Part shown: positions 43,787 through 63,940 of the stretch, piece after piece
Numbering within the stretch: the stretch's first letter is position 1
Layout: every line of letters starts with the position of its first letter
Source: an uncultured delta proteobacterium
GTDB lineage: Bacteria > Desulfobacterota > Binatia > UBA9968
DNA: 64,000 nucleotides
Direction of reading: 5' to 3'
Assembly (NCBI GenBank): GCA_963804165.1
Contig: CAWDPO010000016.1
Coordinates: 114,284 to 178,283, forward strand
Position numbers and translations under genes: made by a program
The notes under the pieces: generated by a model
The model's database searches: none
Told to the model about the DNA's origin: nothing
What the model saw: only the letters and a program-made list of their open reading frames with translations

Positions 43787-44821
43787 ATGCTGAAGAAAAT
43801 GGTCCGACGTTCAATGCTCAAAAGATCGAAAAATAGATTCGCCATTGTTACTCTTTTCGTCATGCTCTCGTGCACTCTTGCTGGGTTCCGGCCGAGGCGC
43901 AGCAGCCGAAGAAAGTCCCTCGGATAGGGTATCTATCGCCGTTCTGACCCAGCTACGTGAGTCCACCGTAGCCGAGGCAATTCGGCTGGCTCTGCGCGAG
44001 CTTGGCTACATAGAAGGACAGAACATCGCCATCGAGTACCGATATGCGGAGGGAAAGTCGATCGGTTCCCTGAGCTTGCGGCCGAGTTGGTGCGTCTCAA
44101 GGTTGATATCATCGTGGTACAGGAGGGGAACGATCCGGGCGGCCAAGAATGCGACCAAGACGATTCCCATCGTTATGACGGGCACTGGACTCGATCCTGT
44201 CGAGGCAGGCCTAATTGAAAGCCTTGCCCGTCCCGGCGGCAACGTCACCGGCATTACAAACCTTAGCAGGGAACTAGGCGGTAAGCGGCTGGAGCTGCTC
44301 AAAGAAGCCGTTCCCAAAATTGCCCGTGTCGCGGTTCTCTACGATCCGGCCAATCCGCCCAGTGTAATCGAGGTGAAAGAGGTTCTCCCAGTCGCGGCGC
44401 GTGCGCTGGGGTTGACTGTTCGGTCTTGGGAGGTACGAGCTGCGGACGATTTCGATAGGGTATTCGCTGCGATGAATAAGGAGCGCCCGGATGGACTCTA
44501 CGTGCTCGGGGGCGCGCTAATGAATGCTAACCGAAAACGGATCGCGGGCTTTGCGTTAAAGAGCCGGTTACCGTCGATGTATCACCGACAGAGAAGCTGT
44601 AGAGGCCGGCGGGCTCATGTACTACGGGGCGGACCTCGCGGACAGCTACCGGCGCGTCGCATATTACGTGGACAAGAATCCTGAAGGGAGCCAAGCCTGC
44701 CGATCTTCCCGTGGAGCAGCCGACGAAGTTCGAACTCGTCATCAATTTGAAGACAGCGAAGCAGATCGGCCTGACGATTCCGCCGAACGTGCTGGCGCGG
44801 GCGGACAAGGTCATCAAATGA
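43787..44821 (+). CDS. ABC_sub_bind-type substrate-binding protein, copy d (frameshifted)
   Basis: [49 protein letters not shown]. Confidence 0.85.
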
Positions 44822-44868
44822 CATTTTGGATTTGTCGATTTTAGATTTTGGATTGAGGCAGAAAAGCA

Positions 44869-45930
44869 ATGACAAAGAATTTCGGATGCGATCTCCGAAT
44901 TCTTGTTCCGACAATCGAAATCTAAAACCTGTGCTGAGCAACGTCGAAGTATCCAAAATCGAAAATGGCTGGGGCTTTCGCTCTCGTTGTCACGTTCGTT
45001 TTGGGGCTGCGGCTCAGGCGCAGCAGCCAGGAAAAATCTTCCGCATAGGTTTCCTGGATACAAGCACTGCTTCTGGTAGCGCGGTCCTCTTGGAGGCGTT
45101 CCGGCAAGAGCTGGCAAGCTTGGATGGATTGAGGGAAAGAATATCACCATCGAGTACCGGTTTGCCGAGCAAAAGCTGAGCGCCTGCCCGAGCTTGCGGC
45201 GGACTTGGTTCGTCTTAAGGTTGATCTGATTGTGGTCACAGGACGCCACGCGTTAGCGGCGAAGAAAGCAACCACTACCATCCCCATCGTGATGGCGAAC
45301 GCTGGGGACCCCGTGGGTGCAGGTCTGGTTGCCAGTCTGGCGCGGCCGGGAGGCAATGTCACCGGGCTTCTCGAGTTTAGCGCCCGAAGTAAACACGAAA
45401 AGGCTAGAGATACTCAAGGACGCGGTCCCCAAACTCGCCCGAGTTGGACTTCTGCGGCCGGCGGGAGGATCAGGAGACGTCCAACTGAAAGAGCTCAGGC
45501 CTGCGGCTCTGGCGCTAAAGCTAAAATTGGAGGAGATCGAGACTCAACCCGACCCCAAAGGTTTAGAGAGCGCCTTTCAAACCGCAAAGCAGAAGCAGGT
45601 CGGCGCGATTATGACGACCGCCGGTCCCGCTTTTTCGCCGAAAGAAAGCGGATCGTCGAGCTTGCCGGCAAATACCGATTGCCTGCTATTTACTTACAGA
45701 AGGAGTTTGTCGATGAGGGCGGTCTCATGTCCTACGGGGCGGACTACGATGACCTCTATCGGCGCGCGGCTGTTTACGTGGACAAGATCTTGAAAGGCGC
45801 CAAACCGGCTGATTTGCCGGTGCAGCAGGCGACGAAGTTTGAATTCATCATCAACCTTAAGGCGGCAAAACAAATCGGTCTGACAATTCCGGTCCGCGTG
45901 CTCGAGCGGGCGAATCAGGTGATCAAGTAG
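44869..45930 (+). CDS. ABC_sub_bind-type substrate-binding protein, copy e (frameshifted; close duplicate of b)
   Basis: AQAQQPGKIFRIGFLD ... PVRVLERANQVIK. Confidence 0.85.
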
Positions 45931-45980
45931 GCAGTGATCAGCGGTCAGAAGTCAGCGGTCAGCAGAACAGAAAAAAATTC

Positions 45981-46967
45981 ATGAATAGAAAAATTTTTGC
46001 CTTGCGCTATGCGCTTTGCTCTTTGCGCTTTGCCTTTCGTGCCGAGGCGCAGCAGCCAAAGAAACTCCCGCGGATCGGGCTTTCTAATCGGCAGTTCCGC
46101 TTCCTCCAATGCGGCTCGCATCGAGGCTTTCGCAAGGTCTACGCGAGCTTGGCTACGTGGAAGGTCAGAACATCTTCATGGAATACCGATATGCGGGAGG
46201 CAAGGCCGATGAGTATCCCAAGCTAGCTGCTGAGTTGGTCAGTCTCAAGGTAGACGTTATCGTCGTCAGGGGGTGGTAGTGGTTTGGCTCGTGCGGCGAA
46301 GGAAACCACCAAGACGATCCCCATCGTTATGACAGGCGGTAGCGATCCGGTTGGCGCCGGGCTTGTTGCCAGCCTAGCGCGGCCAGGTGGAAACATCACA
46401 GGGCTGACCGCTATAGCCGCAGAGTTAGCGGGCAAACGGCTGGAACTGCTAAAGGAGACCTTGCCCAGGCTCACCCGCGTCGGCGTGCTCTGGAATCCAA
46501 CGGACCAAGGTTCGGCCCAGGGCTTAAAAGAGATAGAAATCGCCGCTCCGACATTGGGGTTGGAGGTTCAATCGCTTCAGGTGCGGAGCCCCAGCAATTT
46601 CGAGAGTGCATTCAAAGCAGCCATTGCGGGCCAAGCTCGCGCTCTCCAAGTTCTGGGGAGTGGCCTCATCAATAGTCACCGGAACCGCATCATAGAGTTT
46701 GCGACCAAGAGCCGATTGCCAACGATGTTCGCGGACGCTGCGCTTGTCGAAGCCGGTGGGCTTATGTCGTACGGGCCGAACGCTCCTGACTTATATCGCC
46801 GCGCGGCCACTTATGTTGACAAGATCCTTAAAGGCGCCAAGCCCGCCGACCTGCCGGTGGAGCAGCCGAAAAAGTTCGACTTCGTCATCAATCTGAAAGC
46901 AGCGAAGCAGATCGGCCTGACGATTCCGCCGAATGTGCTGGCGCGGGCGGATCGGGTAATCAAGTGA
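45981..46967 (+). CDS. ABC_sub_bind-type substrate-binding protein, copy f (5' frameshifts)
   Basis: [13 protein letters not shown] ... [20 protein letters not shown] ... [13 protein letters not shown]. Confidence 0.87.
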
Positions 46968-47019
46968 AACAATTTTGGATTGCCGATTTTGGATTTTGGA
47001 TTGAAGGAGAGAAAAGCGC

Positions 47020-48077
47020 ATGAATGAAAAGTCTTGGCTCCCAGTTGTAAATTCTTGTCTCATAATCCAAAGTCTAAAATCCAAAATCGAAAATGGTGGG
47101 GATTATCGCTGTCTTTTCGCATTCGTAATGTGTGGGCGTTGCGGTCGAGGCGCAGCAGCCGAAGAAAGTCCCGCGCATAGGGTACCTTTCGTCGGTCGAT
47201 GCAGCTCTGAGTCCGCTCGCGCTGAGGGAATTCGGCGGGCTCTGCGCGAGCTTGGCTACATAGAAGGACAGAATATCGACTATCGAGTACCGATATGCCG
47301 AGGGAAAGACCGATCGGGCTTCCGAGCTTGCGGCCGAGTTGGTGCGTCTCAAGGTCGATATCATCGTCGTAGCAGGGGGGATCCATTGGATCCAGAGCGG
47401 CAAAGAATGCGACCAAGACGATTCCTATAATCATGGTGGGTGCCGGGAACGACCCTGTCGAGGCAGGCCTAGTTGAGAGCCTTGCCCGGCCGGGCGGCAA
47501 CGTTACCGGTATGACAAATCTCGGCGCAAAAATAGGCGGAAAGAGGCTGGAGCTCTAAAAGAAGCCGTTCCCAAAATTGCCCGTGTCGCGGTTATTTACG
47601 AGCCGGCCACTCCAGCCAATGTAGTCGAGGTCAAAGAGGACCTTCCAAACGCGGCGCTCGCGCTGAAGTTGGCTGTCCAAGCTTGGGAGGTACGAACTGC
47701 GGACGATTTCGAGAAGGTATTTGCTGCGCTAAACAAGGAGCGCCCGGATGGACTCTACGTGGCGGGGAGCCCGCTCCTAAATGCTAACCGAAAAACGCAT
47801 TGTGGCCTTTGCGTTAAAGAGCCGGTTACCGTCGATGTACGACAGCAGAGAAGCTGTAGATGGCGGTGGGCTCATGTCCTACGGGGCGGACCTCGCGGAC
47901 AGCTACCGTCGCGTCGCTACCTACGTGGACAAAATCCTGAAGGGAGCCAAGCCTGCCGATCTCCCGGTGGAGCAGCCGACGAAGTTTGAATTGGTCATCA
48001 ATCTCAAAGCCGCCAAGCAGATCGGCCTGACGATTCCGCCAAATGTGCTGGCGAGGGCGGATAAGGTGATCAAATAG
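47020..48077 (+). CDS. ABC_sub_bind-type substrate-binding protein, copy g (frameshifted)
   Basis: [62 protein letters not shown]. Confidence 0.85.
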
Positions 48078-48135
48078 CAGTGACCATGGAGCGAACAGTA
48101 AGGAGCAAAGAGCGGCAAGAACACAGGAGTAGATC

Positions 48136-49115
48136 ATGAGAAAAAATTCTTTGGTCTTACGCTTTGCGCCTTGCTCTTAGCGCTTTGCTTTCCCGCCGAG
48201 GCGCAGCAGCCAACGAAAGTCCCGCGGATAGGATATCTCGGTGGCGCCACTTGGCTACCGATCAGGCTCGCATCGAGGCATTCCGGCAGGGCCTGCGCGA
48301 GCTTGGGTACGTGGAGGGGAAGAACATCGTCATTGAGTGGCGATATGCAGAAGGAAAACTCGATCGCGAGCCCGCGCTCGCGGCGGAGCTAGTGCGTCTC
48401 AAGGTAGACGTGATCGTCACCGTGGGGTCGAATGCCACCCGTGCCGCCAAGGAAGCAACTGCTACGATTCCAATTGTGATGACGCAGGATCCCGATCCTA
48501 TTGGAAACGGGTTCGTCGCCAGCCTTGCGCGACCAGGCGGAAACATTACTGGATTATCAAACGTTAACCGGGAGCTAAGCGGAAAACGACTGGAGCTATT
48601 GAAGGAAGTCTTCCCAGGCTCTCCCGCGTGGCCGTCTTCGGGACTTCGACCAACCCGGGCACAGGCGCAAAATTTAAAAGAGACGGAACTCGCCGCAGGG
48701 GCGCTCAGAATCCAGCTTCAGTACCTCGACGTACTAGATCCAAAGGATATTGAGACTGCGTTCCGAGCGGCGAGCAAGGGGCGCGCTGAGGCAGTCCTCG
48801 TGCTAGGGGGCTCCGTACTCAATTCTCAGCGAGCACGGGTCGTCGAACTTGCGGCAAAGAGCCGGCTTCCGGCGATATACGGCATCCGAGAATCTGTGGA
48901 AGCCGGGGGCTTATGAGCTACGGCCCGAGCGGTAACGACTTGACCGGCGCGCCGCAACGTATGTCGACAAGATTTTGAAAGGCGCCAAGCCCGCTGAGCT
49001 GCCAGTCGAGCAGCCGACGAAGTTCGAGTTCATCATCAATCTGAAAGCGGCGAAGCAGATCGGCCTGACGATCCCGCCGAATGTGCTGGCGCGGGCGGAT
49101 AGGGTGATCAAATGA
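48136..49115 (+). CDS. ABC_sub_bind-type substrate-binding protein, copy h (frameshifted)
   Basis: AGGAG RBS; [15 protein letters not shown]; same clade as a and c. Confidence 0.86.
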
Positions 49116-49157
49116 CAGTTGACCAGTTGCCAGTGATCAGTTACCAGTGAGAAACAG

Positions 49158-50167
49158 GTGAGAAAAGACTCATAGAATTCAAAATCTCTTTGTCTGGTTA
49201 GCTGATAACTGTCTTGCTGATAACTTGCTTTGTTTCCGCCGAAGCGCAGCAGCCGAAGAAAGTCACGCGGATAGGGTATCTAACGCCGTTGAACCCAGCT
49301 ACCGAATCCACCCGTTCCGAGGCAATTCGGCTGGCTCTGCGCGAGCTTGGCTACATAGAAGGACAGAACATCGCCATCGAGTACCGATATGCGGAGGGGA
49401 AGCGCGATCGGCTCCCTGAGCTTGCGGCCGAGCTGGTGCGTCTCAAGGTTGATATCATCGTGGTAGCAGGAGGGGACGGTCCGATCCGGGCGGCCAAGAA
49501 TGCGACCAAGACGATTCCCATCGTTATGACGGGCACCGGGCCCGATCCTGTCGAGGCAGGCTTCGTTGAAAGCCTTGCCCGTCCCGGCGGCAACGTCACC
49601 GGCCTAACAAACCTTACCAGAGAACTAGGCGGGAAGCGGCTGGAGCTATTCAAAGAAGCCGTTCCCAAAATTGCCCGTGTCGCGGTTCTCTACGAACCGG
49701 CCAATCGGCCCAGTGTAATCGAGGTGAAAGAGGTTCTTCCAGTGGCGGCGCGTGCGCTTGGGTTAACTGTTCGGTCTTGGGAGGTACGAGCTGCGGACGG
49801 TTTCGATACGGTATTCGCTGCGTTGAATAAAGACCGCCCAGATGGACTCTACGTGACCGGGGGCTCGCTAATGGCTGCTAACGGAAAACGGATCGCGGGC
49901 TTTGCGTTAAAGAGCCGGTTGCCGTCGATGTACAGCGACAGAGAAGCTGTAGATGCTGGTGGGCTCATGTCCTATGGGGCGGACCTTGCGGACAGCTACC
50001 GGCGCGTCGCCACCTACGTGGACAAAATCCTGAAGGGCGCCAAGCCGGCCGACTGCCGGTGGAGCAGCCGACGAAGTTCGAGCTGGTGATCAATCTCAAA
50101 ACGGCGAAGCAGATCGGCGTGACGATCCCGCACAGTGCTGGGACGGGCGGATAAGGTGATTCAGTAA
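49158..50167 (+). CDS. ABC_sub_bind-type substrate-binding protein, copy i (frameshifts at both ends)
   Basis: [15 protein letters not shown] ... [13 protein letters not shown]; 291-aa core ORF 49214-50089. Confidence 0.88.
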
Positions 50168-50212
50168 GGCCCAAGGGGCAAGGAATATAAAAACTAACCA
50201 AGCCTAGATATC

Positions 50213-50557
50213 TCACAAGTTCAGAATGATGCGGATGCGGTTTTCCACTTCTTCCATCATAGGATTTGGCAAGGAGCCAATCTCTTGGCGGAAGGACTCG
50301 TTGGCCACAGCGATCACTTGGCCTAGAAGTAGATCGCTGTCGCGAGAAACTCCGCCTTGGCCCTTCTTGAGGCGAATCCGCAGAATTCCCGGATTTTCCA
50401 CCAGCCGGGTCGTCGTTGGAATGACGATAGTCGATGGGTACTCGGCCTCATTGACGAGATCGGATTGGAGCACCAGGCCAGGCCGAAGCTTTCCGGGTTT
50501 GGTTTTGATGCGCGGATTGAAGTCTATGATGTATAAGTGTCCCCTTTTGACGGGCAT
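50213..50557 (-). CDS. Type II toxin, PemK/MazF family endoribonuclease
   Basis: KRGHLYIIDFNP...KLRPGLVLQSD..N...TIVIPTTT...DSDLLLGQV. Confidence 0.9.
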   Translation of the reverse strand: MPVKRGHLYIIDFNPRIKTKPGKLRPGLVLQSDLVNEAEYPSTIVIPTTTRLVENPGILRIRLKKGQGGVSRDSDLLLGQVIAVANESFRQEIGSLPNPMMEEVENRIRIILNL

Positions 50558-50800
50558 TTACTCTTTCCCGTCCGCACGCGCGACACCGGCGTTGAAAAGC
50601 TCTCGGTTCTCCTCACGATCGGCCGCGCCGCAGCGATTCACAGAGTCCTGGATATCGCGCCGTAATTTTTCTTCCTGGCTTTTCTTTTCCAGAGTTCTTA
50701 GCGCGGTGCGGATCAGTGCCGATTTGCTTGCGATCCCCAGGTCTTTACGCAACCTTTCGATTTGCTCTTCTTCCTTTTTGGAAACGGCTATTGCTCCCAT
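50558..50800 (-). CDS. Putative antitoxin (ribbon-helix-helix/CopG-like)
   Basis: 80 aa with SKSALIRTAL helix, abutting the toxin; AGGAG RBS. Confidence 0.8.
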   Translation of the reverse strand: MGAIAVSKKEEEQIERLRKDLGIASKSALIRTALRTLEKKSQEEKLRRDIQDSVNRCGAADREENRELFNAGVARADGKE

Positions 50801-50831
50801 AATGCTCCTTGTTAGAAGACTTATTATGTTA

Positions 50832-50860
50832 TTTATAATTCAGCCCATGATTCAAGTCAA
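50832..50860 (-). promoter_or_regulatory. Sigma70 promoter of the TA operon, antisense to the array
   Basis: Minus strand TTGACT-N17-TATAAA. Confidence 0.7.
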
Positions 50861-50924
50861 ACTCATTAGCATCAGGCCGCGCGTTCTCGTCGTCGAGGCG
50901 GAATGGATTCCTCGTAGGCCACTC

Positions 50925-50986
50925 AAGCAGGTCGGTCTTACAATTCCAGTCCGCGTGCTGGAGCGGGCGAATCGTGTGATCAAGTG
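50925..50986 (+). pseudogene. Orphan 3'-end remnant of an array paralog
   Basis: Encodes KQVGLTIPVRVLERANRVIK, matching the b/e tails. Confidence 0.85.
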
Positions 50987-51034
50987 CAACGAGGGATGAG
51001 TGACGAGTGTCGAGTGGAAAGAGTAGAGAAAAAC

Positions 51035-51415
51035 ATGAAGAGAAAATTCACTGTCCTTACGCTTTGCGCCATGCTCTTTGCGCTTTGCGTGTCCGCGCAG
51101 GCGCAGCAGCCGAAGAAAGTTCCTCTGATAGGTTTTCTCGTTCCTGGTTCCTCTGCTAGTTACTCGGTCCGCATTGAGGCTTTTCGGCAAGGGCTGCGGG
51201 ATCTGGGGTATGTTGATGGCGAGAACATCATCATTGAGGGTCGATGGGCAGAAGGGTCGGCCGAACGCTTGTCCCATCTTATAGACGATCTGATCCTGCT
51301 CAAGTTAGACGTCCTGGTGGTCGGCTCGACGGGCGGTGCTCGGGCGGCGAAAAATGCCGGGGTTGCGACCCCTGTCGTCTTTGTCGCAGTGACTGATCCC
51401 ATAGGGTATGGATGA
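51035..51415 (+). pseudogene. ABC_sub_bind-type paralog k, truncated after about 125 aa
   Basis: [35 protein letters not shown]...VAVTDPIGYG*, cut where a heptamer leader begins. Confidence 0.85.
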
Positions 51416-51560
51416 TTGCGGATTTCGAATTTCGAATTTTGGATTGATGGGTACAACAATGGATCAAGTTTCGATTGACTCTTTCGCGATTGACTTTAAA
51501 TCCGCACTCCGCAATGTCAAATCCGCAATTCAATTGGGCGCCATGCCCTTTGCACTTTGC
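51415..51560 (+). repeat. Array-type leader module (ATTGCGG/ATTTCGA vs AATCCGC heptamer hairpin plus signal-peptide remnant)
   Basis: Direct repeat of 55030-55170. Confidence 0.8.
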
Positions 51561-51580
51561 TTTTCTGGCGAGGCTTCATC

Positions 51581-53890
51581 ATGACAACAGAGCACACCAC
51601 GACCGGACTTATTGGCGCGTCTATACTTCGCGTCGAGGACGCGCCCCTGATTACCGGCAAAGGATACTATACGGAGGACATCCGGCTACCTGGAATGCTC
51701 CACATGGCTTTTCTGCGTAGCCTCTACCCACATGCGAAAATAATTTCCATCGATACAAGCGCAGCGAAGGCAATGGCCGGAGTGATCGCCGTGGTGACCG
51801 GCGATGACCTCAGTGAGCGGTTGCATATCCCGGCTATTCCGATGGTGCCCGGCATGAAGATACCGCCCCATCCGCTGCTGGCGCGTGGCGCAGTCCACGC
51901 GGCCGGCACTCCCGTGGCGGCGGTGGTTGCTGAAAGCCGCGCCCTCGCCCAGGATGCGGCGAGCGCTATCATTGTGGAATACGAAGCGCTGCCGGCAGTG
52001 GTGAGTGCCGAAAAAGCGCTGGAGCCCGGCGCGCCACTCGCCCGCGAGGAGCTGGATAGCAACCTGTGCTACATCGCGACAAAAAAAGGCGGCGACGTCG
52101 ACAAAGCATTCGCCGAGGCCGAGCATATCATTCGCCTGCGTATCGCTAGCCCGAGGTTGGTAGCGATGGCAATGGAGCCGAGAGGCATCGTGGCCAAGCC
52201 GGAACCGACGGGAGATCTGACTGTTTGGCTCTCAACTCAGAGCCCGCACCGAGTGCGCGCGGATCTGGCCACCGCGATCGGTTTTCCTGAGCACAGGATC
52301 CGCGTCATCGCGCCTGATGTCGGTGGCGGGTTCGGCAGCAAAGGACTCCTCTACCAAGAAGACGCGCTGGCCAGCCACCTGGCGCTGAAGCTCGGCCGGC
52401 CCGTCCAGTGGATCTCCACGCGTAGCGAGGATTTCGTCACGACGAATCAAGGGCGCGACCAGGTGATGACGTCGGAGCTGGCCCTCAAGCGGGATGGCAC
52501 CATGCTCGGCTTGAAAGTGCGCGTGATCGGGAATCTGGGCGCTTACCTGAACTCCCTTTCCGCGATACCACCGCTGCGCATGATGGCGATGGCCCCGGGC
52601 TGCTACCAGATCCAAAACTGCTCCGTCGAGGTAGTCGCGGTTTTTACTAATACCATTCCCACCGGTCCGTATCGCGGCGCGGGGAGGCCGGAGTCGGTGC
52701 TCAACATCGAACGGTTGATCGACAAAGCGGCGCGCGAATTGGCCATGGACCGTCTGGAAATCAGGCGCAAAAATTTTATTCGCCCCGAGCAGTTCCCGTA
52801 CCGTACGGGGGTAAACGTCGAATACGATTCGGGAGACTATGAAAAGTCGCTCGCCGAAGCGCTGCGGTTATCCGACTACGAAAAACTTATTCGCGATCGG
52901 GACGAAGCGCGCGAACGCGGCGAGTTTGTCGGCGTCGGTCTCTCGACTTTCGCTGAGCCGAGTGGCGGCGCCGGCTTTGAGAGCGCAACGGTTCGGGTGG
53001 AGCGCAGCGGAGAAATTACGGTGCTCACCGGGTCCAGCTCCCACGGTCAGGGTCATGAGACCGTGTTTGCTCAGGTGGCGGCCGAGAGAATGCGCGTTTC
53101 CATGGATCACGTGGCGATTCGACACGGTGATACCCTGACGATTCAGGAGGGCGGCGGCACCTTTGGCAGTCGCAGCGCCATCATGGGCGGCGGAGCATTG
53201 GTGATGGCCATTGATCGGGTCATTGAAAAGGCTCGCCGTATTGCTGCGCATTTGATGGAGGCGGCAGCCGAGGACATCGTTCAAACGGATGGCGGCTTCG
53301 CGGTGGCTGGAGTGCCCGACAAAAAAGTTTCCTGGCGCCAAATTGCCGCCGCCGCGTACGGAATGAACCTTCCGCGCGGTATGGAGCCCGGTCTTCACGA
53401 GACCGCCTTCTTTGATCCAAGGCGCGAAGCCTGGGGCTTCGGTGCGCATGTGGCGGTGGTGAGAATCGATCGGGAAACCGGCACGCCGACGCTTGAAAAG
53501 CTCGTGCTGGTCGATGACTGCGGCGTCGTCATCAACCCGATGATTCTCAACGGGCAGATTCACGGCGGCGTAGCTCAGGGCCTCGGTGAAGCGCTTCGCG
53601 AACAGATGCTCTTTGGCGACGACGGCGCGGTTCTCACCGGCTCGTTGATGAATTACGCGGTGCCGCGCGCCGGAGACATGCCGCAGCTCACACTGGGCGA
53701 GACGGTGACGCCGAATCCGTTTAACCCATTGGGCGTCAAGGGCGTGGGCGAGGCGGGATGCAACGGGGCGCCGCCGGCGGTGGCCAACGCGGTCATGGAC
53801 GCGCTCGCTCCCCTCGGTATCGACCACATCGACATGCCCTACACCGCGCCCAAACTCTGGGCGGCGATACGGAAAGCCGAAGGACGCTGA
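51581..53890 (+). CDS. Xanthine dehydrogenase family molybdopterin-binding subunit (CoxL/CutL-like, not form I CODH)
   Basis: RVED..LITGKG.Y, DVGGGFGSK, PYRGAGRPE, HGQGHET, GTFGSRS, GQIHGGVAQGLG, KGVGEAG. Confidence 0.95.
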   Translation: MTTEHTTTGLIGASILRVEDAPLITGKGYYTEDIRLPGMLHMAFLRSLYPHAKIISIDTSAAKAMAGVIAVVTGDDLSERLHIPAIPMVPGMKIPPHPLLARGAVHAAGTPVAAVVAESRALAQDAASAIIVEYEALPAVVSAEKALEPGAPLAREELDSNLCYIATKKGGDVDKAFAEAEHIIRLRIASPRLVAMAMEPRGIVAKPEPTGDLTVWLSTQSPHRVRADLATAIGFPEHRIRVIAPDVGGGFGSKGLLYQEDALASHLALKLGRPVQWISTRSEDFVTTNQGRDQVMTSELALKRDGTMLGLKVRVIGNLGAYLNSLSAIPPLRMMAMAPGCYQIQNCSVEVVAVFTNTIPTGPYRGAGRPESVLNIERLIDKAARELAMDRLEIRRKNFIRPEQFPYRTGVNVEYDSGDYEKSLAEALRLSDYEKLIRDRDEARERGEFVGVGLSTFAEPSGGAGFESATVRVERSGEITVLTGSSSHGQGHETVFAQVAAERMRVSMDHVAIRHGDTLTIQEGGGTFGSRSAIMGGGALVMAIDRVIEKARRIAAHLMEAAAEDIVQTDGGFAVAGVPDKKVSWRQIAAAAYGMNLPRGMEPGLHETAFFDPRREAWGFGAHVAVVRIDRETGTPTLEKLVLVDDCGVVINPMILNGQIHGGVAQGLGEALREQMLFGDDGAVLTGSLMNYAVPRAGDMPQLTLGETVTPNPFNPLGVKGVGEAGCNGAPPAVANAVMDALAPLGIDHIDMPYTAPKLWAAIRKAEGR

Positions 53891-53975
53891 CGCATTGTTT
53901 CAATTTGCCTGTTTTGAGTCGCGCGTTGACCCAAAACTCGAAACTGCGAATTAGGAGAGGAGGAGTTAGGGAGCT

Positions 53976-54959
53976 ATGGCCAAGAACTTTACGATCTGTG
54001 TCGGCACGTTGGGCATGGGCCTGTGGCGTAGCGCCGACGGCGGCAAGAGCTGGGCGAGAGGCAAATTATGGAAAGGATACCAGGGTGGGAGATCTGTCTT
54101 TGGTCTCGCGGTGCATCCACAGGATCCCCGGATCATCTACGCGGGCGCAGACGATGGCATCTATCGAAGCGAAGACCGGGGCGCGACCTTCGAGCACATT
54201 GCATCGCCGCTGGACGCGTATAACGTCTGGCGCATTGCCATCGACCCGGTGGACCCCGATACAATGTTCGCCGGCACCGCTCTGCCGGCGCTCTTTCGCT
54301 CGCGCGACGGCGGTCTTCACTGGGAAAAACTCCCAGCGGAATTTGCCACCGATTGCATGAACGTAACGAAGCCGCGCGTTACCGCGCTTGTGGTCGACCC
54401 GTTGGACCACAATTTCGTCTGGGCGGGGGTCGAGGTCGATGGCGTGCGCGTGAGCCGGGATGGCGGCGACACATGGACGCGTCCTTCCGGCGGTCTCATG
54501 GACGAGCCTGACATCCACGATATCAAGATACTTCCGGGCAAACCGGGCGCAGCGGTAGTCACTATCCCCGACGAGATCTGCGTCAGCACCGATGGCGGCG
54601 CCAATTGGCAGGCATTCGGGGTGCGCGGACGCTTTCCCTTACCGTATTGCCGCAACGTGGTCTTCAAACTAGACGAGCCGAAAGTGATCCTGGCGGCCAT
54701 CGGCGATGACGCGCTGGGCGGCCTCGGCGCCCTACAGCGCTCCACTGACGGCGGCCATAGCTGGGAAACGCCGCTCCTTCCGATCACGCCAAATACACAT
54801 ATGGAGTGCTTCGCGACCCATCCCGCAGATCCCAATCTGATCCTCGCGTGCAGCCACTACGGCCAACTGTTCGCCAGCTCGGACGGCGGCGAATGGTGGG
54901 TCAAACTCCCCCGGGAGTTCACTGAGATCCGAGGCGCTTTGGCGTGGGTGCCCAACTAA
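53976..54959 (+). CDS. BNR/Asp-box beta-propeller protein (sialidase/YCF48-like fold), no signal peptide
   Basis: Repeated S-x-D-G-G-x-x-W boxes (SADGGKSW, SRDGGLHW, SRDGGDTW, STDGGANW, STDGGHSW, SSDGGEWW). Confidence 0.88.
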   Translation: MAKNFTICVGTLGMGLWRSADGGKSWARGKLWKGYQGGRSVFGLAVHPQDPRIIYAGADDGIYRSEDRGATFEHIASPLDAYNVWRIAIDPVDPDTMFAGTALPALFRSRDGGLHWEKLPAEFATDCMNVTKPRVTALVVDPLDHNFVWAGVEVDGVRVSRDGGDTWTRPSGGLMDEPDIHDIKILPGKPGAAVVTIPDEICVSTDGGANWQAFGVRGRFPLPYCRNVVFKLDEPKVILAAIGDDALGGLGALQRSTDGGHSWETPLLPITPNTHMECFATHPADPNLILACSHYGQLFASSDGGEWWVKLPREFTEIRGALAWVPN

Positions 54960-54961
54960 GG

Positions 54962-55016
54962 GTGGAGCGATAGGCGTGACGGTCCCGCCTAACGTGCTGG
55001 CGAGAGCGGGCGACAG
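54962..55016 (+). pseudogene. Orphan 3'-end remnant of an array paralog
   Basis: GTGGAGC joined to sequence encoding [13 protein letters not shown]. Confidence 0.8.
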
Positions 55017-55067
55017 AATGAAATTTTAGATTGCGGATTTCGAATTTCGGATTTAAGGCAAAAAACA

Positions 55068-56109
55068 ATGGATTCGAGTTTGGATCGACTCTTTCGAAAT
55101 TAATTTTAAATCCGCAATCCGCAATCTCAAATCCGCAATTCTACTGGGCGCTATGCTCTTTGCACTTTGCGTGTCCGCCTCTGCGCAGCAGTCGAAGAAA
55201 GTTTACCGGATAGGGTATCTAGCACCGACGGACCCAGCTACGGAGTCTAACCGTTCCGACGCAATTCGGCTGTCGTTGCGCGAGCGCGGCTACATTGAAG
55301 GACAGAACATCGCATTCGAGTTCCGCTATGCGGATGGGAAGCTCGATCGGTTTCCTGAGCTTGCGGCCGAACTTGTGCGTCTCAAGGTCGATATCATCGT
55401 GGCTGCCGGTGGGGAAGTGCTGACCCGGGCGGCCAAGAGCGCGACCCAAGCGCTTCCCATCGTCATGGCGGGCAGCGGCGTCGATCCTGTCGAGGCTGGC
55501 CTAATTGAAAGTTTGGCTCGTCCCGGCGGCAACGTCACCGGCATGACAAACCTTCAGGGAGATCTGGGCGGTAAGCGGCTGGAGCTACTAAAAGAAGCGG
55601 TTCCCAAACTCGCGCGCGTCGCGGTTCTCCACGATCCAGCCAGTCCGGGCACAACCCGCGAGATGTACGAGTTTCTACCGCCCGCGGCGCGTAAGCTGCG
55701 GTTGACACTTCAACCTTGGGAGGTACGAACTGCGGACGGTTTTGAGAAGGTTTTTGCGGCTCTAACTAAGGAACACCCGGACGGACTATACGTACCCAAT
55801 AGCCCTCTAATAAGCGCTAACCAAAAAACGATCGCGCGTTTTGCGTTAAAGAGCCGATTGCCGTCGGTGTTCCAAATTAAAGAACATGTCGATGCCGGCG
55901 GGCTCATGTCCTACGGCGCGGACCTCGCCGACAGCTACCGGCGCGTCGCCTATTACGTGGACAGAATCCTGAAGGGCGCCAAACCTGCCGAACTGCCGGT
56001 GGAGCAGCCGACGAAGTTCGAGTTCGTGATCAATCTCAAGACGGCGAAGCAGATCGGCCTGACGATTCCGCAAAGGGTGCTGGGGCGGGCGGACAGAGTT
56101 ATAAAATGA
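55068..56109 (+). CDS. ABC_sub_bind-type substrate-binding protein, copy m (intact from 55153; upstream ATG out of frame)
   Basis: MLFALCVSASAQQSKKVYRIGYL ... PQRVLGRADRVIK. Confidence 0.92.
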
Positions 56110-56162
56110 CAGTGAGCCAGTAAGCAGTGAGCAGCTAATGAAAAACCGGTGTGCAACAATGC

Positions 56163-57143
56163 ATGATCAAACAAATTCTTTTGCTGCTTACTGTTAATTG
56201 TCTTTCTGTTTACTGTTTGTTTCCCGCCGAGGCGCAGCAGCCGACGAAAATTCCTCGCATAGGATACGTTGGTCCCGCCACGACCGATCCCCGCACCGCG
56301 TCATTCCGGCAAGGTTTGCGCGATCTCGGCTATACGGAGGAGAAAAATATCCTGGTCGAGTATCGTTACGTTGGCGGGAGACTGGACCAGTTCCCTGTTG
56401 TTGTGGCCGAGCTCGTGCAGCAAAAGGTGGATGTGCTCGTCGCCGTGCCCTTTCAAGCGATCCTCGCAGCCAAGCAGGCGACCCAGACGATCCCCATTGT
56501 CATGGTGACAACGTTGGATCCGGTCGCGACCGGGATCGTCGATAGCTTGGCGCGACCGGGCGGAAACATCACGGGGCTCGCCAGACTCACCCGGGTATTG
56601 GGTGCAAAACGGTTGGAGTTGATTAAGGAGACCGCTCCGAAGGTATCGCGAGTCGGAGTGCTGTGGGCGGCGGATGACGAGGGCTCGGCGATTGGTTTTA
56701 AAGATTATGAGGCAGCAGCGGGCGCACTAAATTTACCCCTTCAGAGCCTTGCTGTGCGCGGCCCGACTCCTGATTTGGAAAGTGCGATCGGAGACGCGGC
56801 CAAGGGACCATCGACCGCGCTTATTGCAATCAGGGGCGGTCTGCTCAATCGGTATCAAAAGCGGATTGCGGATCTCGCCATCGAGAACCGTCTGCCTTCT
56901 ATGTTTGAAGGAAACGACTTTGTAAATGCAGGCGGGCTGATGTCCTATACAACCGATGATGACGAGAGTTTCAAGCGTGCCGCTGTTTATATGGACAAGA
57001 TTCTGAAGGGCGCCAAGCCCAGTGAATTGCCTGTGGAGCAGCCGAAGAAGTTTGAGTTGGTGATCAATCTGAATACAGCGAAGCAGATCGGCCTGACGAT
57101 TCCGCCGGATGTGCTGGTGCGAGCGGACAAGGTGATTCGGTGA
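56163..57143 (+). CDS. ABC_sub_bind-type substrate-binding protein, copy n (intact, divergent)
   Basis: [15 protein letters not shown] ... [11 protein letters not shown] ... PPDVLVRADKVIR. Confidence 0.93.
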   Translation: MIKQILLLLTVNCLSVYCLFPAEAQQPTKIPRIGYVGPATTDPRTASFRQGLRDLGYTEEKNILVEYRYVGGRLDQFPVVVAELVQQKVDVLVAVPFQAILAAKQATQTIPIVMVTTLDPVATGIVDSLARPGGNITGLARLTRVLGAKRLELIKETAPKVSRVGVLWAADDEGSAIGFKDYEAAAGALNLPLQSLAVRGPTPDLESAIGDAAKGPSTALIAIRGGLLNRYQKRIADLAIENRLPSMFEGNDFVNAGGLMSYTTDDDESFKRAAVYMDKILKGAKPSELPVEQPKKFELVINLNTAKQIGLTIPPDVLVRADKVIR

Positions 57144-57193
57144 CAAGAAGGCAACAGGCAACAGGGCTTCGGAGTCGGCGTGCCGATCCTCAG

Positions 57194-57544
57194 CTACCCG
57201 ACAAACCCGTCTACCGGGATCAAACGCTTGGCGACGGGATCGACTGCAAGGAAAAGACTTTCAAGAGCCACGGCGCCGAGCAGCGCAGGACCGTCGGGCG
57301 CAATGAAGCATGGAGTCGTAATTTCATCGCCGTTCAGAGCCAACCGCGCTTCGGCTACGGGCCATACGTCTCGCTGTCCGCCAGCGATCACGACGCGTTG
57401 AGACCGTGCGGGCTTGAGCTCAAGCCTTTCCGCCAGCGATCGGGGCACCACGCTCAGAGTAGCGCCGGTGTCCACAAGAAGCTCAACTTCTTCGACACGT
57501 CCCGTCGGACCGCTCAGGCGTCCCTTTACGTGAAAAAGTCCCAT
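57194..57544 (-). CDS. Retropepsin-like (clan AA) aspartyl protease
   Basis: ELLVDTGATLSVVP and ALLGAVALESL; possible own promoter TTGCGT-N16-TACAAT at 57572-57599. Confidence 0.85.
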   Translation of the reverse strand: MGLFHVKGRLSGPTGRVEEVELLVDTGATLSVVPRSLAERLELKPARSQRVVIAGGQRDVWPVAEARLALNGDEITTPCFIAPDGPALLGAVALESLFLAVDPVAKRLIPVDGFVG

Positions 57545-57684
57545 CGCAAATGCCTTCTCAAAAGCACGGCCATTGTAGCTCAGCCGACAAACAACGCAAC
57601 AACAACGATCAGTCAAAAGAAGGATAGATGGAACTCGGAGCAAAATGTCTTCGATGTCGGTTTCTAGTTGCCGATGAGCGAATT

Positions 57685-57711
57685 GCGCGGGCGGATAAAG
57701 TCATTAAATGA
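57685..57711 (+). pseudogene. Orphan 3'-end remnant of an array paralog
   Basis: GCGCGGGCGGATAAAGTCATTAAATGA = ARADKVIK*, followed directly by a CAGTGAG heptamer leader. Confidence 0.8.
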
Positions 57712-57764
57712 CAGTGAGCGGTGAGCAGTAAGCAGTGAGCAGCAAAAAACCGGGAGCAAAACGG

Positions 57765-58757
57765 ATGATCAAACAAATTCTTTTCTGCCTACTGCTAACT
57801 GTCTTTCTGTTTACTGTTTTTTCTGCAGAGGCGCAGCAGCCAACGAAAGTAGCACGGATAGGCTATCTAGTGGCGGGCGATCCAGCTGGTGAGTCCGCCC
57901 GCGCTGAGGCCATTCGGCTGAATCTGCGCGAGCTTGGCCACGTGGAAGGACAGAACATCGCCAGCGAGTACCGATATTCGCATGGGAAAAACGATCGAGC
58001 TTCTGAGCTTGCTGCCGAGCTAGTACGTCTCAGGGTTGATGTCATTGTGGTAGCAGGAGGAGACCCGTGGATTCGGGCGGCCAAGAACGCGACCAAAACA
58101 ATTCCCATCGTTATGGTGGGCGTTGGGGGCGATCCCGTCGAGGCAGGCCTGGTGGAGAGCCTTGCCCGTCCCGGCGGCAACGTCACCGGCATTACAAACC
58201 TTGGCCCAGAACTAGGTGGGAAGCGGCTGGAACTGCTAAAAGAAGCGGTTACCAAACTTGCCCGTGTCGCGGTTCTCTACGATCCGGCTAGTCCGGGCAC
58301 GGCACGTGAGATGAAAGAGCTTCTCCCAGTCGCGGCCCGTGGGCTGGGGTTGACCCTTCAGACTTGGGATGTACGAGCTGCGGACGGTTTCGAGAAGGTA
58401 TTCGCTGCGCTGAGTAAGGAGCGCCCGGATGGACTCTATGTGCTCTCCGGCCCGCTAGTGCGTGCTAACGGAAAACGGATCGCGGATCTTGCGTTAAAGA
58501 GTCGGCTACCGTCGATGTACGCCATAAGAGAGTCTGTAGATACCGGCGGGCTCATGTACTACGGGGCGGACGTCGCGGACAGCTACCGGCGCGTCGCCTA
58601 TTTCGTTGACAAGATCCTGAAAGGCGCAAAACCGGCTGACCTGCCCGTCGAGCAGCCGACAAAGTTTGAGTTCATCATCAATCTCAAGACAGCCAAGCAG
58701 ATCGGTCTGACGATTCCGCAAAGGGTGTTGGGGCGGGCAGACAAGGTCATCAAGTAA
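57765..58757 (+). CDS. ABC_sub_bind-type substrate-binding protein, copy p (intact)
   Basis: [35 protein letters not shown] ... PQRVLGRADKVIK. Confidence 0.94.
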   Translation: MIKQILFCLLLTVFLFTVFSAEAQQPTKVARIGYLVAGDPAGESARAEAIRLNLRELGHVEGQNIASEYRYSHGKNDRASELAAELVRLRVDVIVVAGGDPWIRAAKNATKTIPIVMVGVGGDPVEAGLVESLARPGGNVTGITNLGPELGGKRLELLKEAVTKLARVAVLYDPASPGTAREMKELLPVAARGLGLTLQTWDVRAADGFEKVFAALSKERPDGLYVLSGPLVRANGKRIADLALKSRLPSMYAIRESVDTGGLMYYGADVADSYRRVAYFVDKILKGAKPADLPVEQPTKFEFIINLKTAKQIGLTIPQRVLGRADKVIK

Positions 58758-58860
58758 TTTTGGATTTTCGATTTTAGATTTTGGATTGAAGCGCAGGAGA
58801 ATAATTCTATGATTCGATTTCCTTCCGAGAATCCAAAATCGGCAATCCAAAATCCAAAAT
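58757..58860. repeat. ATTTTGG/CCAAAAT heptamer inverted repeat enclosing RBS and ATG (same type at 42588-42683, 44822-44966, 46970-47095)
   Basis: ATTTTGG ATTTTCG ATTTTAG ATTTTGG ATT ... AGGAG ... ATG ... AATCCAA AATCGGC AATCCAA AATCCAA AAT. Confidence 0.9.
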
Positions 58861-59825
58861 GGCTGGGGCCGTCGGTAATTGCTTTCGCGCTCGTGGTGGT
58901 TGGGGCTGTGGCGTATGCCCAGGACGGAAAACCCAAGATCAGAATCGCGATTCCTAGTGCGTCGATATGTTGTCTTCATTTGTTCGCCGCGCAGCAATGG
59001 AAAGTATTCGAAGACAACGGGCTCGACGTCGAGATTATTCAAATGCGGCCTCAGGTGGCTAATGCCGCCATGATCGCCGGAGAAATTCATTATTTCGCCG
59101 GCGTCGGTCCCAATTCGGTCGCAGCGACTTTGCGCGGGATGTCTTCCAGGGCGGTTTGGTTTGCTTCCGATCAGCTCATTTACTCGCTTTTAGCGCGGCC
59201 CGAGTTCAAAACTCTAAGAGAACTGCGCTCGAAGCGCCTCGCTGTCGGTGGCTTGGGCGATACGACTGAGGTGTCGTTGCGGATCGGCCTGGAAGCGGCC
59301 GGGGAAAACCCGAAAGACTTCGTCATTCTCGGCGTCGGAAATCCAAATATAATGAGCGCGCTGGATAGTGGAAACGTCGAGGCTGCGCTGCTCAATCCGC
59401 CGCTGTTGTACTATGCCAAACGAAAAGGTTTTCGGGAGGTTTTGGATGTCGGAGCGCACGTCAAGATGCCGCTCGGCGGCCTGACAACGATGGCTTCGAC
59501 GATTCAAAATCGGCCCGCCGAAATGCGCCGCCTCATCCGCGCCATGCAGATCGCCAAGAGAAGCATGCTTCAATCCAAGGAGAAAAGTGTCGACGTGATG
59601 ATCCGGTTTTTCAAAGTCAATCGAGAAACCGCGCAAGATACATTTACGGATTATCAAAAAACCGTCAGTGGAAACGGTGTTCCGAGCCGCGAGGGCATCG
59701 AGCAAATCGTTAAATCGCTTCAAATGCTTGGGCAGTTCAGCGGCAGGAAAATCCCCTTTGAAGAGGTCGCCGATGCGCGGATCGCGAGAGAAGTGGCGAA
59801 GGAGCTGGGGTATAAGGTTGAATAA
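58809..59825 (+). CDS. ABC substrate-binding protein, NMT1/SsuA-like (paralog of 36831-37829) carrying an array-type leader
   Basis: SICCLHLFAAQQWKVFEDNGLDVE ... REVAKELGYKVE. Confidence 0.9.
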   Translation: MIRFPSENPKSAIQNPKWLGPSVIAFALVVVGAVAYAQDGKPKIRIAIPSASICCLHLFAAQQWKVFEDNGLDVEIIQMRPQVANAAMIAGEIHYFAGVGPNSVAATLRGMSSRAVWFASDQLIYSLLARPEFKTLRELRSKRLAVGGLGDTTEVSLRIGLEAAGENPKDFVILGVGNPNIMSALDSGNVEAALLNPPLLYYAKRKGFREVLDVGAHVKMPLGGLTTMASTIQNRPAEMRRLIRAMQIAKRSMLQSKEKSVDVMIRFFKVNRETAQDTFTDYQKTVSGNGVPSREGIEQIVKSLQMLGQFSGRKIPFEEVADARIAREVAKELGYKVE

Positions 59826-60063: not shown

Positions 60064-60143
60064 GGTAGAGGCGAATAATTTTAGTCAACGAGATTAATGC
60101 CACAATGTTAAACCGCGAGTTCATTACCGACGAGGAACATCTC

Positions 60144-61121
60144 ATGCAGACCAAGACCTTCGCGATCGTATTCGCTTTAGTCGGACTGCTAATTCTGGCG
60201 AGTGAGTCACACGCGCAGGAGCGGCTAAAAAAGATCCGCATCACGTATCCGACCGAGTCGATCGCCGTGCTGCCGTTATTCGCTGCTGTGAAATGGAAAT
60301 TGTTCGAAGAGAATGATCTGCAGGCCGAAATCATTCAAGCCCGCTCGCCCGTGGCCAATGCGGCGCTGGCGAGCGGCGAAATCGGTTACTTCGCTGGCGT
60401 TGGTCCGGCATCAGTCAGCGCGACGCTGCGCGGACTGCAATCGCGCGCCGTTTGGTTCGCCAGCGACGAAATTATTTATCTGCTGCTCACGCGGCCGGAC
60501 ATTGCGAGCGTTCGAGAGCTTCGAAATAAAAAGATCGCCCTTACCGGATTGGGCGGCACGTCGCACGTGGCTCTCCAGATTGCGCTGGAGGCGGTCGGCG
60601 AAAATCCCAAAAACTTTCTTTACATCTCGATCACCGCGGCGCAAACCATGGCCGCACTGGAAAGCGGTGTGGTCGATGCGGCACTTTTGAGCCCGCCTTA
60701 CGATTTTTACGCTAAGAAAAAAGGATTTCGTGAAGTGCTCAACGCGGGGACCTATGCTCGGATGCCTTTTGGCGGCCTTACGGTGATGATCGCAACGCTG
60801 CGTAATCGAGCCGACGAGTTAAAGAAGGTGATTCGTGCCATGCAAGTGGCCAAGCAGGAGATGCTCAAATCCAAGGAAAAAACCGTGGCGCTAATCTCCA
60901 ATTTTTTGAAAGTCGACCGGGACGCGGCGGAAAACACCTACGCGGTTTATGGCAAGACCGTCAGCGGCAGCGGCGTGCCGAGTCGCGACGGCATCGATCA
61001 GATTATGAAATCACTCCAGTTGGCTGGGCAATTCACCGACCGCAAAGTGGCATTCGAAGAAGTCGCCGACGACCGCATCGCCAAGGAAGTCGCCAAAGAG
61101 TTAGGCTACAAGATCAACTGA
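60144..61121 (+). CDS. ABC substrate-binding protein, NMT1/SsuA-like
   Basis: MQTKTFAIVFALVGLLILASESHAQE signal peptide; FEENDLQAE, LASGEIGY, LRNKKIALTGLGG. Confidence 0.9.
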   Translation: MQTKTFAIVFALVGLLILASESHAQERLKKIRITYPTESIAVLPLFAAVKWKLFEENDLQAEIIQARSPVANAALASGEIGYFAGVGPASVSATLRGLQSRAVWFASDEIIYLLLTRPDIASVRELRNKKIALTGLGGTSHVALQIALEAVGENPKNFLYISITAAQTMAALESGVVDAALLSPPYDFYAKKKGFREVLNAGTYARMPFGGLTVMIATLRNRADELKKVIRAMQVAKQEMLKSKEKTVALISNFLKVDRDAAENTYAVYGKTVSGSGVPSRDGIDQIMKSLQLAGQFTDRKVAFEEVADDRIAKEVAKELGYKIN

Positions 61122-62704: not shown

Positions 62705-62751
62705 ACGATTGTTCAAGCCGTTCAAAAGTTCAAAGGTTCAAATGTTCAAAG
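62701..62751. repeat. Tandem GTTCAA repeats (also 63853-63923 and 28600-28660)
   Basis: GTTCAAGCC GTTCAAAA GTTCAAAG GTTCAAAT GTTCAAAG. Confidence 0.75.
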
Positions 62752-63847: not shown

Positions 63848-63940
63848 GAGCAACCGTTCAACCGTTCAACGTTCAAAGGTTCAAGGTGGGGCCGCGTTAG
63901 ACGGTAGACCTTGAACATTGAACAGATTCTCGAGGAAATC

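Follow-up and report, generated by a model that had tools for sequence, protein, structure and literature searches.

Orphan 3′ ends of PF04392 genes in a large bacterial gene array most likely mark lost paralogs and not a special docking site

The stretch of DNA considered here, 64,000 nucleotides (nt) in length and hereafter called the window, corresponds to G000:C16:114284-178283, where G000 is the window's own genome, a bin of 7.5 Mb in 46 contigs with a completeness of 81% and a contamination of 5%. Between about 40500 and 58757 the window carries a co-oriented array of paralogs of about 330 amino acids (aa), as delineated by tblastn, and these are PF04392 (ABC_sub_bind) substrate-binding proteins according to Pfam, with matches above the gathering score. 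For example, the paralog p57 (57735-58757) matches PF04392 with an E-value (E) of 4e-42 and 144.9 bits (cut-off 25.9) over model positions 19-293 of 293. A DNA model of the paralog, comprising 999 columns and built from 117 near-full copies, was used with nhmmer and gave 176 matches genome-wide in G000, of which 121 are full length; the longest co-oriented run consists of 33 paralogs on contig C6, and the spacers in the arrays measure 19-200 nt. Three stretches of unrelated genes, referred to as cargos, lie within the array of the window, and each is followed by a short orphan copy of the paralog 3′ end, referred to as a scar (Table 1). The scars are genuine remains of array paralogs, of which the final 30-60 bases are left, and most likely they mark genes that were lost by deletion or overwritten by inserted genes, and not a special docking site.

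The cargos had been described in the original prediction, made from the sequence alone, as a toxin-antitoxin (TA) pair, a molybdopterin hydroxylase (Mo-hydroxylase) plus propeller and an aspartyl protease, and Pfam confirmed these identities. Cargo 1 consists of adjacent genes with the domains PF02452 (PemK/MazF toxin, E 1.7e-20) and PF01402 (RHH antitoxin, E 7.3e-05) and is a predicted type II toxin-antitoxin module. Cargo 2 encodes all three molybdopterin-hydroxylase large-subunit domains, plus a BNR/Sortilin propeller, and cargo 3 an Asp_protease_2 domain. Unrelated spacers of 41-59 nt are left beside cargos 1 and 3.

The same prediction held that the three scars are conserved paralog 3′ ends, each leading into a heptamer leader and then a paralog. 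Both statements are borne out, as the scars match the last 28-63 columns of the model and heptamer tandem repeats stand 3′ of all three (ACGAGTG x4.0 at 50989, AATCCGC x4.4 at 55109 and CAGTGAG x4.4 at 57712), the paralog 3′ of scar 1 being a 5′ fragment only (aa 9-138, 51026-51412 by tblastn). Scar 1 (columns 936-998, E 6.3e-09 genome-wide) translates at 50925-50984 as KQVGLTIPVRVLERANRVIK, and its stop codon has changed from TGA to TGC. Scar 2 is recognised at 54969-55009 as columns 942-982 (E 0.0024 genome-wide, 6.5e-06 when the search is confined to the intergenic slots defined below); by hand count the peptide originally quoted for it lies at about 54970-55008, within the quoted 54962-55016, and translation from 54962 is out of frame with that peptide. 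Scar 3 (57685-57711) translates as ARADKVIK* and covers columns 972-999 (E 0.0064 genome-wide, 0.0034 among slots). No paralog body was found by tblastn upstream of the three scars or of the other orphan tails of G000, and the homology is limited to a part of the gene, as in pseudogene remnants. The loss of the stop in scar 1, the drift of scar 2 and a stub length that differs between genomes for all three cargos are the marks of neutral decay and lineage-specific erosion.

Table 1. Features of the scarred part of the array, in window coordinates
Feature	Position	Strand	Remarks
Upstream paralog of cargo 1, PF04392	49157..50167	+	Full length in DNA, frame broken near 3′ end; tblastn aa 7-340; nhmmer columns 6-999 at C16:163448-164450
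Leader stub, GGSSCAA-like heptamers, after upstream paralog stop	50168..50189	+	Putative, from the sequence
Cargo 1 cassette	50190..50866	-	MazF/PemK toxin 50213-50557, RHH antitoxin 50558-50800; sharp homology limits
Spacer between cargo 1 and scar 1	50867..50924	+	First ~30-40 nt common to L086
Scar 1	50925..50987	+	Orphan tail, columns 936-998, stop now TGC
Leader ACGAGTG x4 and paralog 5′ fragment (columns 5-393)	50988..51412	+	Abuts bare TGA 51413-51415
Complete heptamer-hairpin leader and apparent paralog signal-peptide start, before Mo-hydroxylase gene	51413..51556	+	By eye; kept in G003 at ~95%
Cargo 2	51557..54959	+	Molybdopterin hydroxylase large subunit 51557-53890; BNR/Sortilin-type propeller 53976-54959
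Scar 2	54969..55022	+	Decayed tail, columns 942-982 and shortened end to TGA
Leader, paralog p55 (55153-56109), leader, paralog p56 (56151-57143)	55023..57143	+	
Leader stub AGGCAAC x2.4 after p56 stop	57144..57170	+	Inferred
Cargo 3, retropepsin-like aspartyl protease open reading frame	57194..57643	-	Pfam
Scar 3	57684..57711	+	Tail end, columns 972-999, TGA included
CAGTGAG leader, hairpin from scar 3 stop codon (z = -3.5), then paralog p57	57712..58757	+	

The organisation of the spacers is important for what follows. Each intergenic leader has two arms, namely a tandem heptamer repeat directly behind the stop codon and the complement of this repeat within the signal-peptide coding region of the next gene. 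Paired with each other, the arms form a long hairpin around the ribosome-binding site and the start codon. Hairpin sites were noted at 57709-57830, 56107-56225, 58755-58870 and also 55005-55150, with a heptamer type that varies per unit. In three of the six leaders folded (z -3.0 to -4.8) the hairpin starts within the stop codon, so that the next unit begins where the previous gene ends. Leader stubs of 21-23 nt are left after the upstream stops in cases 1 and 3, with a heptamer type unlike that of the right-hand leader, and a complete leader with a signal-peptide start precedes cargo 2; these remains indicate that each cargo occupies the slot of a lost unit. Beyond the array, intergenic DNA also contains short tandem repeats with units of 8-9 nt, such as CGTTCAAAT / TTGAACGAT; those at 30618-30747 form an inverted pair, and others lie at 32853-32893, 62720-62751 and 63851-63887. 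The repeat-hairpin style of spacer may thus be a genome-wide habit.

It had been proposed to search the genome with the last 60 nt of the paralogs, on the understanding that remnants coming equally from all parts of the gene would speak against a special role of the tail. The model was cut into 16 segments of 60 columns, and hits outside any fragment of at least 200 nt were counted as orphans. The remnants are not equally distributed, and the tail is in excess. In G000 the last segment accounts for 20 short orphans, all three scars included, the two segments before it for 8 and 3, and the remaining 13 segments for 0-3 each. Sensitivity is similar along the gene, as some other segments detect 120/121 and 117/121 of the full copies, compared with 120/121 for the tail. 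The same bias is seen in other genomes, where 84 loci of 528 kb with 163 full copies gave 40, 13 and 5 orphans in the last three segments and 0-5 elsewhere. Other genomes compared below are labelled G003, G012, G015, G018 and G045, and single loci from other genomes carry an L, such as L086. The idea that the orphans are the tails of very divergent full-length paralogs was rejected, since there is no upstream body in G000 and tblastn gave one possible hidden body (L054) among 40 orphans in relatives.

In a whole-genome scan, 23 of the 25 orphan tails of G000 extend to model column 991-999 and two end at 982-984, with varying starts. By hand count, 13 orphan tails of G000 have a paralog start 26-127 nt downstream; several of the remaining ones are followed by an inverted-repeat element of ~80 nt or by a co-oriented gene 16-20 nt downstream, and those outside arrays mostly have a co-oriented gene shortly downstream, for example one for a DUF1206 or a secreted protein. 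Of the proposed travelling unit, 'tail-leader-gene' fairly describes what stays together, the stub always keeping its 3′ end just before leader and gene. Counted by hand, 9 left-anchored 5′ remnants compare with 12 3′ remnants that are anchored on the right and no shorter than 143 nt. This threshold allows for a leader plus a detectable head, and as a plausibility check the counts are compatible with a symmetric process.

The left breakpoints were studied in 67 orphan tails of G000 and its relatives, whose 30-nt left flanks were compared with the full copies. None of the 67 flanks reaches an identity of 0.6 with any full copy (95th percentile of the null, 0.47), so the left breakpoints are genuine; clustering of breakpoints as an artefact of local alignment was rejected for the left edge, as 0/67 flanks extend. 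The 67 tails fall into 60 clusters of distinct junction sequence, with breakpoints that range over columns 725-972, i.e. the last ~275 columns, and become denser toward the stop, the retained stubs being 28 to 275 nt long. Taking one per junction cluster, the bins 700-750 and 750-800 and then the 25-column bins to 975 contain 2, 3, 3, 6, 4, 8, 7, 15 and 12 breakpoints; the final bin, beyond those listed, is empty by construction, because stubs under ~27 nt are below detection. This skew toward the stop is the shape expected of erosion and not of one site.

These results bear directly on site-specific integration, according to which the gene 3′ end would be an attachment (att) site for an integrase-borne element, as in tRNA-gene islands or integron cassettes. 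The layout is indeed alike, for genomic islands in the 3′ end of tRNA or protein genes also comprise a complete gene, foreign DNA and an orphan 3′ copy. Chromosomal integrons likewise form long co-oriented arrays with structured inverted-repeat spacers and interspersed TA modules. In the present arrays, however, no fixed crossover is seen, the flanking repeats are unlike each other, being related only at family level, many cargos have no orphan copy, and a cargo may be as small as 0.54 kb. Pfam detected no recombinase, integrase or transposase among the window cargos and the open reading frames (ORFs) of seven scarred-slot loci (L030-L036); integron integrase was likewise absent from the scarred slots scanned by Pfam, no genome-wide IntI search having been made. 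In contrast to the diverse cassettes of integrons, the units here belong to one paralog family, and their heptamer arms (ATTTTGG, CAGTGAG, ACGAGTG, AATCCGC and others) have no shared core of the attC kind. A target-site or Campbell-type duplication of the upstream tail as a general origin was rejected too, given that the orphans are no closer to the tail of the upstream gene than to a random one (mean percentile of identity 0.50 among all tails, n=33; 6/33 at 0.9 or above). An att-site integrative element is contradicted in its three defining features, namely the recombinase, the fixed crossover and the derived flanking repeats, and this explanation is regarded as very improbable. The discrete attachment site suggested in the original prediction is contradicted by the same observations, i.e. 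60 distinct junctions between columns 725 and 972, no recombinase and no duplication of the upstream tail.

The same cargos occur in other genomes and allow the stubs to be compared. The cassette of cargo 1 has counterparts in G018 and L086 with 94% identity over 677-684 nt and equal end points, the homology starting at about 50190 of the window. In G018 a leader and a full paralog follow it directly, without any tail between them and the cassette, and in L086 it is followed by about the first 30-40 nt of the window's spacer and then by a shorter tail (columns 963-998) of a different type with a different leader. One cargo is therefore accompanied by different stubs, the tail starting at column 936 in the window and at 963 in L086 and being absent from G018. 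The paralog 3′ of the G018 cassette has a tail of the same type as scar 1, but with 82% identity over 62 nt, and closer tails exist in the window's own array; no orthologous intact copy was identified.

Cargo 2 is 92% identical between the window and G012, where the junction is shared and a better kept tail (columns 926-999) is present. The identity of scar 2 to this tail is ~70%, with small deletions (hand count on the alignment), as against the 92% of the cargo, and scar 2 has decayed faster than its cargo. In G003 cargo 2 is 94-95% identical, and about 13 nt of tail end (by eye) stand before a different leader. The homology limits of cargo 2 in both genomes are close to gene ends. The complete leader and apparent signal-peptide start upstream of this cargo are common to the window and G003, and the upstream flank of G012 differs from 13 nt before the ATG. 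In G003, moreover, a 42-nt tail end precedes the downstream leader where the window's 5′ fragment (columns 5-393) meets a bare TGA, which indicates that this fragment is a separately deleted gene and not one half of a split gene.

Cargo 3 has matches in five other genomes at 74-84% identity. The tail that accompanies it is 28 nt long in G000, 127 nt (columns 872-999) in G015 and absent in G018, and in G012 a decayed homologue of the 28 nt of G000 (scar 3) is followed by a second tail of columns 940-998 (~55 nt). In every pair among G000, G012, G015 and G018 the cargo is 78-87% identical and the paralogs on both sides are non-orthologous, so that only short stretches align. As a whole, the window array shows only patchy, non-collinear matches of 84-92% to the array of G018, and hence no ancestral state can be read from the latter.

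These recurrences are also relevant to the assembly, since a repeat-rich long-read metagenome bin might produce such structures artificially. The bin is incomplete, many frames are broken and some contigs are partly redundant; nevertheless, G012, which is an independent assembly, has the same junctions at scars 2 and 3, L086 has the TA cassette together with its spacer and a tail, and the 3′ bias is found in 84 loci of other genomes. An artefact is accordingly considered hardly credible as the source of the scars. According to tblastn, the paralog reading frames of the window array are often broken, most of those at 40503-50164 being readable only across two to four frames, and they represent either pseudogenes or long-read indel errors concentrated in repeats. 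Contigs C37/C38 and C5/C41 are partly redundant, with near-identical paralog runs of equal model E-values at the contig ends (C37:146564-151773 versus C38:1335-5498; C5 versus C41) and one copy carrying a 58-column internal duplication. This reflects assembly redundancy or strain variation and can lead to double counting of array members. The PF04392 arrays of G000 are distributed over contigs C6, C38, C37, C16, C5, C7 and C19, the window portion at 40500-58757 being part of the C16 array, and similar arrays are present in relatives of the same genus. A literature search on binding-protein tandem arrays and PF04392 yielded no description of such arrays, as far as titles and the beginnings of abstracts tell.

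How general the scars are was assessed in the slots of G000, defined as gaps of 250-8000 nt between paralog bodies (n=35). Five of these are insertions inside a gene or internal rearrangements, and the other 30 were classified by hand as non-paralog slots. Eight have a tail at most 137 nt before the next paralog, the three of the window included, four have a tail elsewhere in the gap, and 18 have none at E <= 0.05. The claim that every cargo is followed by a scar consequently holds in the window (3/3) but not in G000 (8/30 slots), nor in G018, where two cargos are unscarred. Some of the unscarred gaps are ordinary units, because the NMT1 binding proteins in them have their own heptamer leaders. 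NMT1-family genes are in fact regular units inside or at the end of PF04392 arrays with the same heptamer-hairpin leaders, for example at 58809-59825 and 60105-61121 of the window and at C6:12588-13645 and C37:145430-146563 of G000.

The genes found by Pfam in the slots analysed are diverse and include DUF2204 nucleotidyltransferase, TENA/THI-4, alpha/beta hydrolase, PAP2, TIR-methyltransferase, GNAT and ParE. TA-type modules (MazF/RHH, ParE, DUF2204/DUF6036 nucleotidyltransferase) lie inside the arrays at 50190-50866 of the window and at C37:139094-139890, C38:6959-7661 and C10:8196-10224 of G000, and they might stabilise recombination-prone arrays. Insertion-sequence-like ORFs are also seen in or between paralogs. 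By eye, transposase-like ORFs stand beside tyrosine-recombinase-like ones in slots of C5 (1008-5391), C41 (762-5191) and C23 (251528-254233); further sites are C10:6079-7727, C37:135292-136477 and C5:6811-7905. Three such insertions split a paralog cleanly.

The conserved 3′ end is involved in exchange between paralogs as well. Contigs C38 and C5 have in common a block of 1015 nt with 91% identity, which extends from column ~840 of the upstream gene through a TENA gene to column ~981 of an orphan tail, while the gene bodies are only 64% identical and the downstream DNA is different. Pairs among 117 non-redundant copies that share a segment of at least 93% identity in genes otherwise at most 80% identical were scored as mosaic, and 33 pairs were obtained. 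In 17/33 the shared segment lies within columns 775-998, and several pairs that share the body break at ~746-925; this 3′-block mosaicism is suggestive only, as the threshold does not adjust for the higher conservation of the block. Examples of mosaic pairs are C12:69744-70754 / C14:160639-161648 and C6:22079-21071 / C6:24158-23170; one pair shares the body (columns 156-880, 95%) and neither signal peptide nor tail, and another shares only the tail block (columns 814-988, 98%). Within the window, p57 resembles p56 in leader and signal peptide, and its body is closest to the paralog 49157-50164 (by eye). The conserved 3′ block thus seems to take part in recombination and to add to the shuffling, for which the sequence comparisons are suggestive. 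The suggestion that the 3′ end is a preferred crossover finds some agreement in the mosaic 3′ block and in one tail-cargo-tail block in two paralog contexts, but not in any fixed site.

These data are the basis for a homology-driven cassette shuttle, the version of the original interpretation that is easiest to defend, in which the last 30-180 nt of the genes would serve as homology arms and a tail-flanked cargo would be looped out or copied into the tail of another paralog. The orphan tail would then be a displaced or carried copy, and entry would occur by homologous or homology-facilitated illegitimate recombination. The latter process combines one homologous anchor with one illegitimate joint and would account for a homologous tail joint next to an abrupt joint to unrelated DNA, as at each scar; it differs in that short stubs are poor anchors and that uptake and direction of the event have no support here. 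Besides the C38/C5 block and the mosaic pairs, the shuttle is consistent with the TA, Mo-hydroxylase, protease and TENA cargos having sharp limits and different paralog neighbours per genome, and with tandem double or triple tails (C5; G012). On the other hand, orphan tails resemble the tail upstream no more than they resemble random tails, and the tails upstream of the protease in four genomes reach only the 71st-91st percentile among random tail pairs. Neither the TA and protease cargos of G018 nor 18/30 slots have a tail, and breakpoints differ between genomes for the same cargo, so that the tail does not belong to a cassette as a constant element. Stubs as short as 28-47 nt would, moreover, be too short for efficient RecA-type recombination. 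The shuttle remains a possible explanation of low probability. That the arrays are an integrase-free cassette platform, with more than 100 tails of ~30-180 nt per genome as interchangeable docks, small cargo units such as TA pairs or single enzymes moving between docks and between strains, orphan tails as footprints and TA cargo as a stabilising element, seems rather doubtful.

Some stubs occur without cargo. A family of seven loci (C5, C7, C12, C38, L060, L125 and L126) has the second leader arm, a few nt and a tail from column ~942-953, with the start codon kept in some members; it represents an internal deletion of almost the whole gene that has been inherited across loci and genomes. In G000 the TENA gene stands 10 nt behind a full paralog. 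In G018, G045 and G012 the final 27 nt of a tail stand in front of it, joined to three different upstream flanks, and in G018 and G045 it is followed by a tail end that starts at column ~966. The inverted-repeat element of ~80 nt exists in 37 copies in G000, 17 of which sit 3-21 nt past a paralog tail end. It is on the same strand as the tail and often follows the last array gene or an orphan tail (e.g. C5:17028-17134, C12:63096, C23:250512, C7:15090 and C18:50054), and may represent a terminator-like sequence or a small mobile element.

The stubs might alternatively be functional and kept by selection, the end of the upstream gene providing the next unit with part of its promoter, of a processing site or of a signal for translation. 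They are right-anchored and stand immediately before intact co-oriented genes, one family is kept over seven loci, 27 nt are kept before TENA, and the stop codon is within the leader stem in 3/6 folds. Selection for a function agrees poorly, however, with the faster drift of scar 2 (~70% versus 92% for the cargo), with the lost stop of scar 1, with G018 paralogs that follow the same cargos without a stub, and with a retained length that varies between 28 and 275 nt. That the tail contains a promoter was rejected, as a simple sigma-70 scan of 40400-59000 (18.6 kb) gave 4 sites versus 7.2 expected and none in the tail. A functional stub is held to be improbable.

The scars are probably stubs that dead paralogs have left at the edge of the following unit and that are now decaying, that is, the result of ordinary gene death in an unusual array. 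A paralog would be lost by a deletion within it or on its 5′ side, or unrelated cargo DNA would overwrite its body and the part next to the leader, and later deletions would trim the dead DNA between two edges. The left edge would be the end of an intact gene or cargo, and the right edge the next unit, with the structured leader that begins at the stop of the dead gene. Since only intervals that lie wholly inside the constrained edges can go, the edges of the dead DNA should survive longest. On the right the survivor would be the extreme 3′ end of the dead paralog, and on the left it would at first be the leader, a non-coding piece that goes unnoticed as the remnant of a gene. The apparent rule of 'cargo, tail scar, leader, gene' would then be due to this edge geometry and to the fact that no other part of the gene is as well conserved or as easy to detect as the tail. 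Homologous recombination in the 3′ block (columns ~820-999) would in addition reshuffle bodies, tails and tail-flanked cargo between paralogs. We infer the order of these events and the survival of the edges from the scars themselves, their 3′ bias, variable breakpoints and decay, and the differences between genomes. The constrained-edge deletion model would explain the stub pattern without a docking site.

Several observations weigh against this explanation. Independent junctions are very strongly skewed to the last ~120 nt. The seven-locus stub family is kept across several genomes, and the flanks of the 27-nt tail end before TENA join at nearly the same column, both of which could mean a function or a hot spot. 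The tail-TENA-tail block of C38 and C5 shows movement or conversion by recombination, an outcome not produced by deletion alone. In all four genomes examined the paralogs on the two sides of cargo 3 are non-orthologous, so that either mobility of the cargo or a fast turnover of its neighbours is needed. Finally, no case was found of an intact paralog exactly at the position of a relative's scar, and paralog loss is consequently deduced and not seen.

Gene death by stub decay would nevertheless be familiar from birth-and-death tandem arrays and from the deletional bias of bacterial genomes. Such arrays likewise contain fragments among intact copies, variable breakpoints, decay, presence or absence between relatives, and mosaics that arise by unequal or ectopic recombination. 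The arrays of G000 differ from them in their unusual bacterial scale (~121 full copies, runs of 33) and in remnants that are uniform in the end they keep, which is attributed here to the structured leader that starts at the stop codon. The findings amount to an ordinary process in an extraordinary array; nothing requires a preferred capture site, and several tests contradict it. What stands of the earlier interpretation is that the tail is special as the part that remains, attached to the next leader and gene, and what does not stand is a preferred attachment site that captures foreign DNA.

With more than 120 PF04392 genes, the array is one of the largest bacterial tandem gene arrays seen in this analysis, and it appears to be turning over rapidly. 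If the scars are indeed stubs of dead paralogs, each orphan tail is the record of one gene loss, ~25 orphan tails versus 121 full copies in G000 provide a simple count of turnover, and leader and gene together form the working unit, which starts at the stop codon of the gene before. This would be useful for the annotation of such arrays, in which stubs and broken frames are otherwise called as odd small ORFs, and for an understanding of how uncultured soil Syntrophobacteraceae-like bacteria diversify their uptake proteins. If instead the cassette shuttle were true, genes would be captured and moved without a dedicated recombinase.

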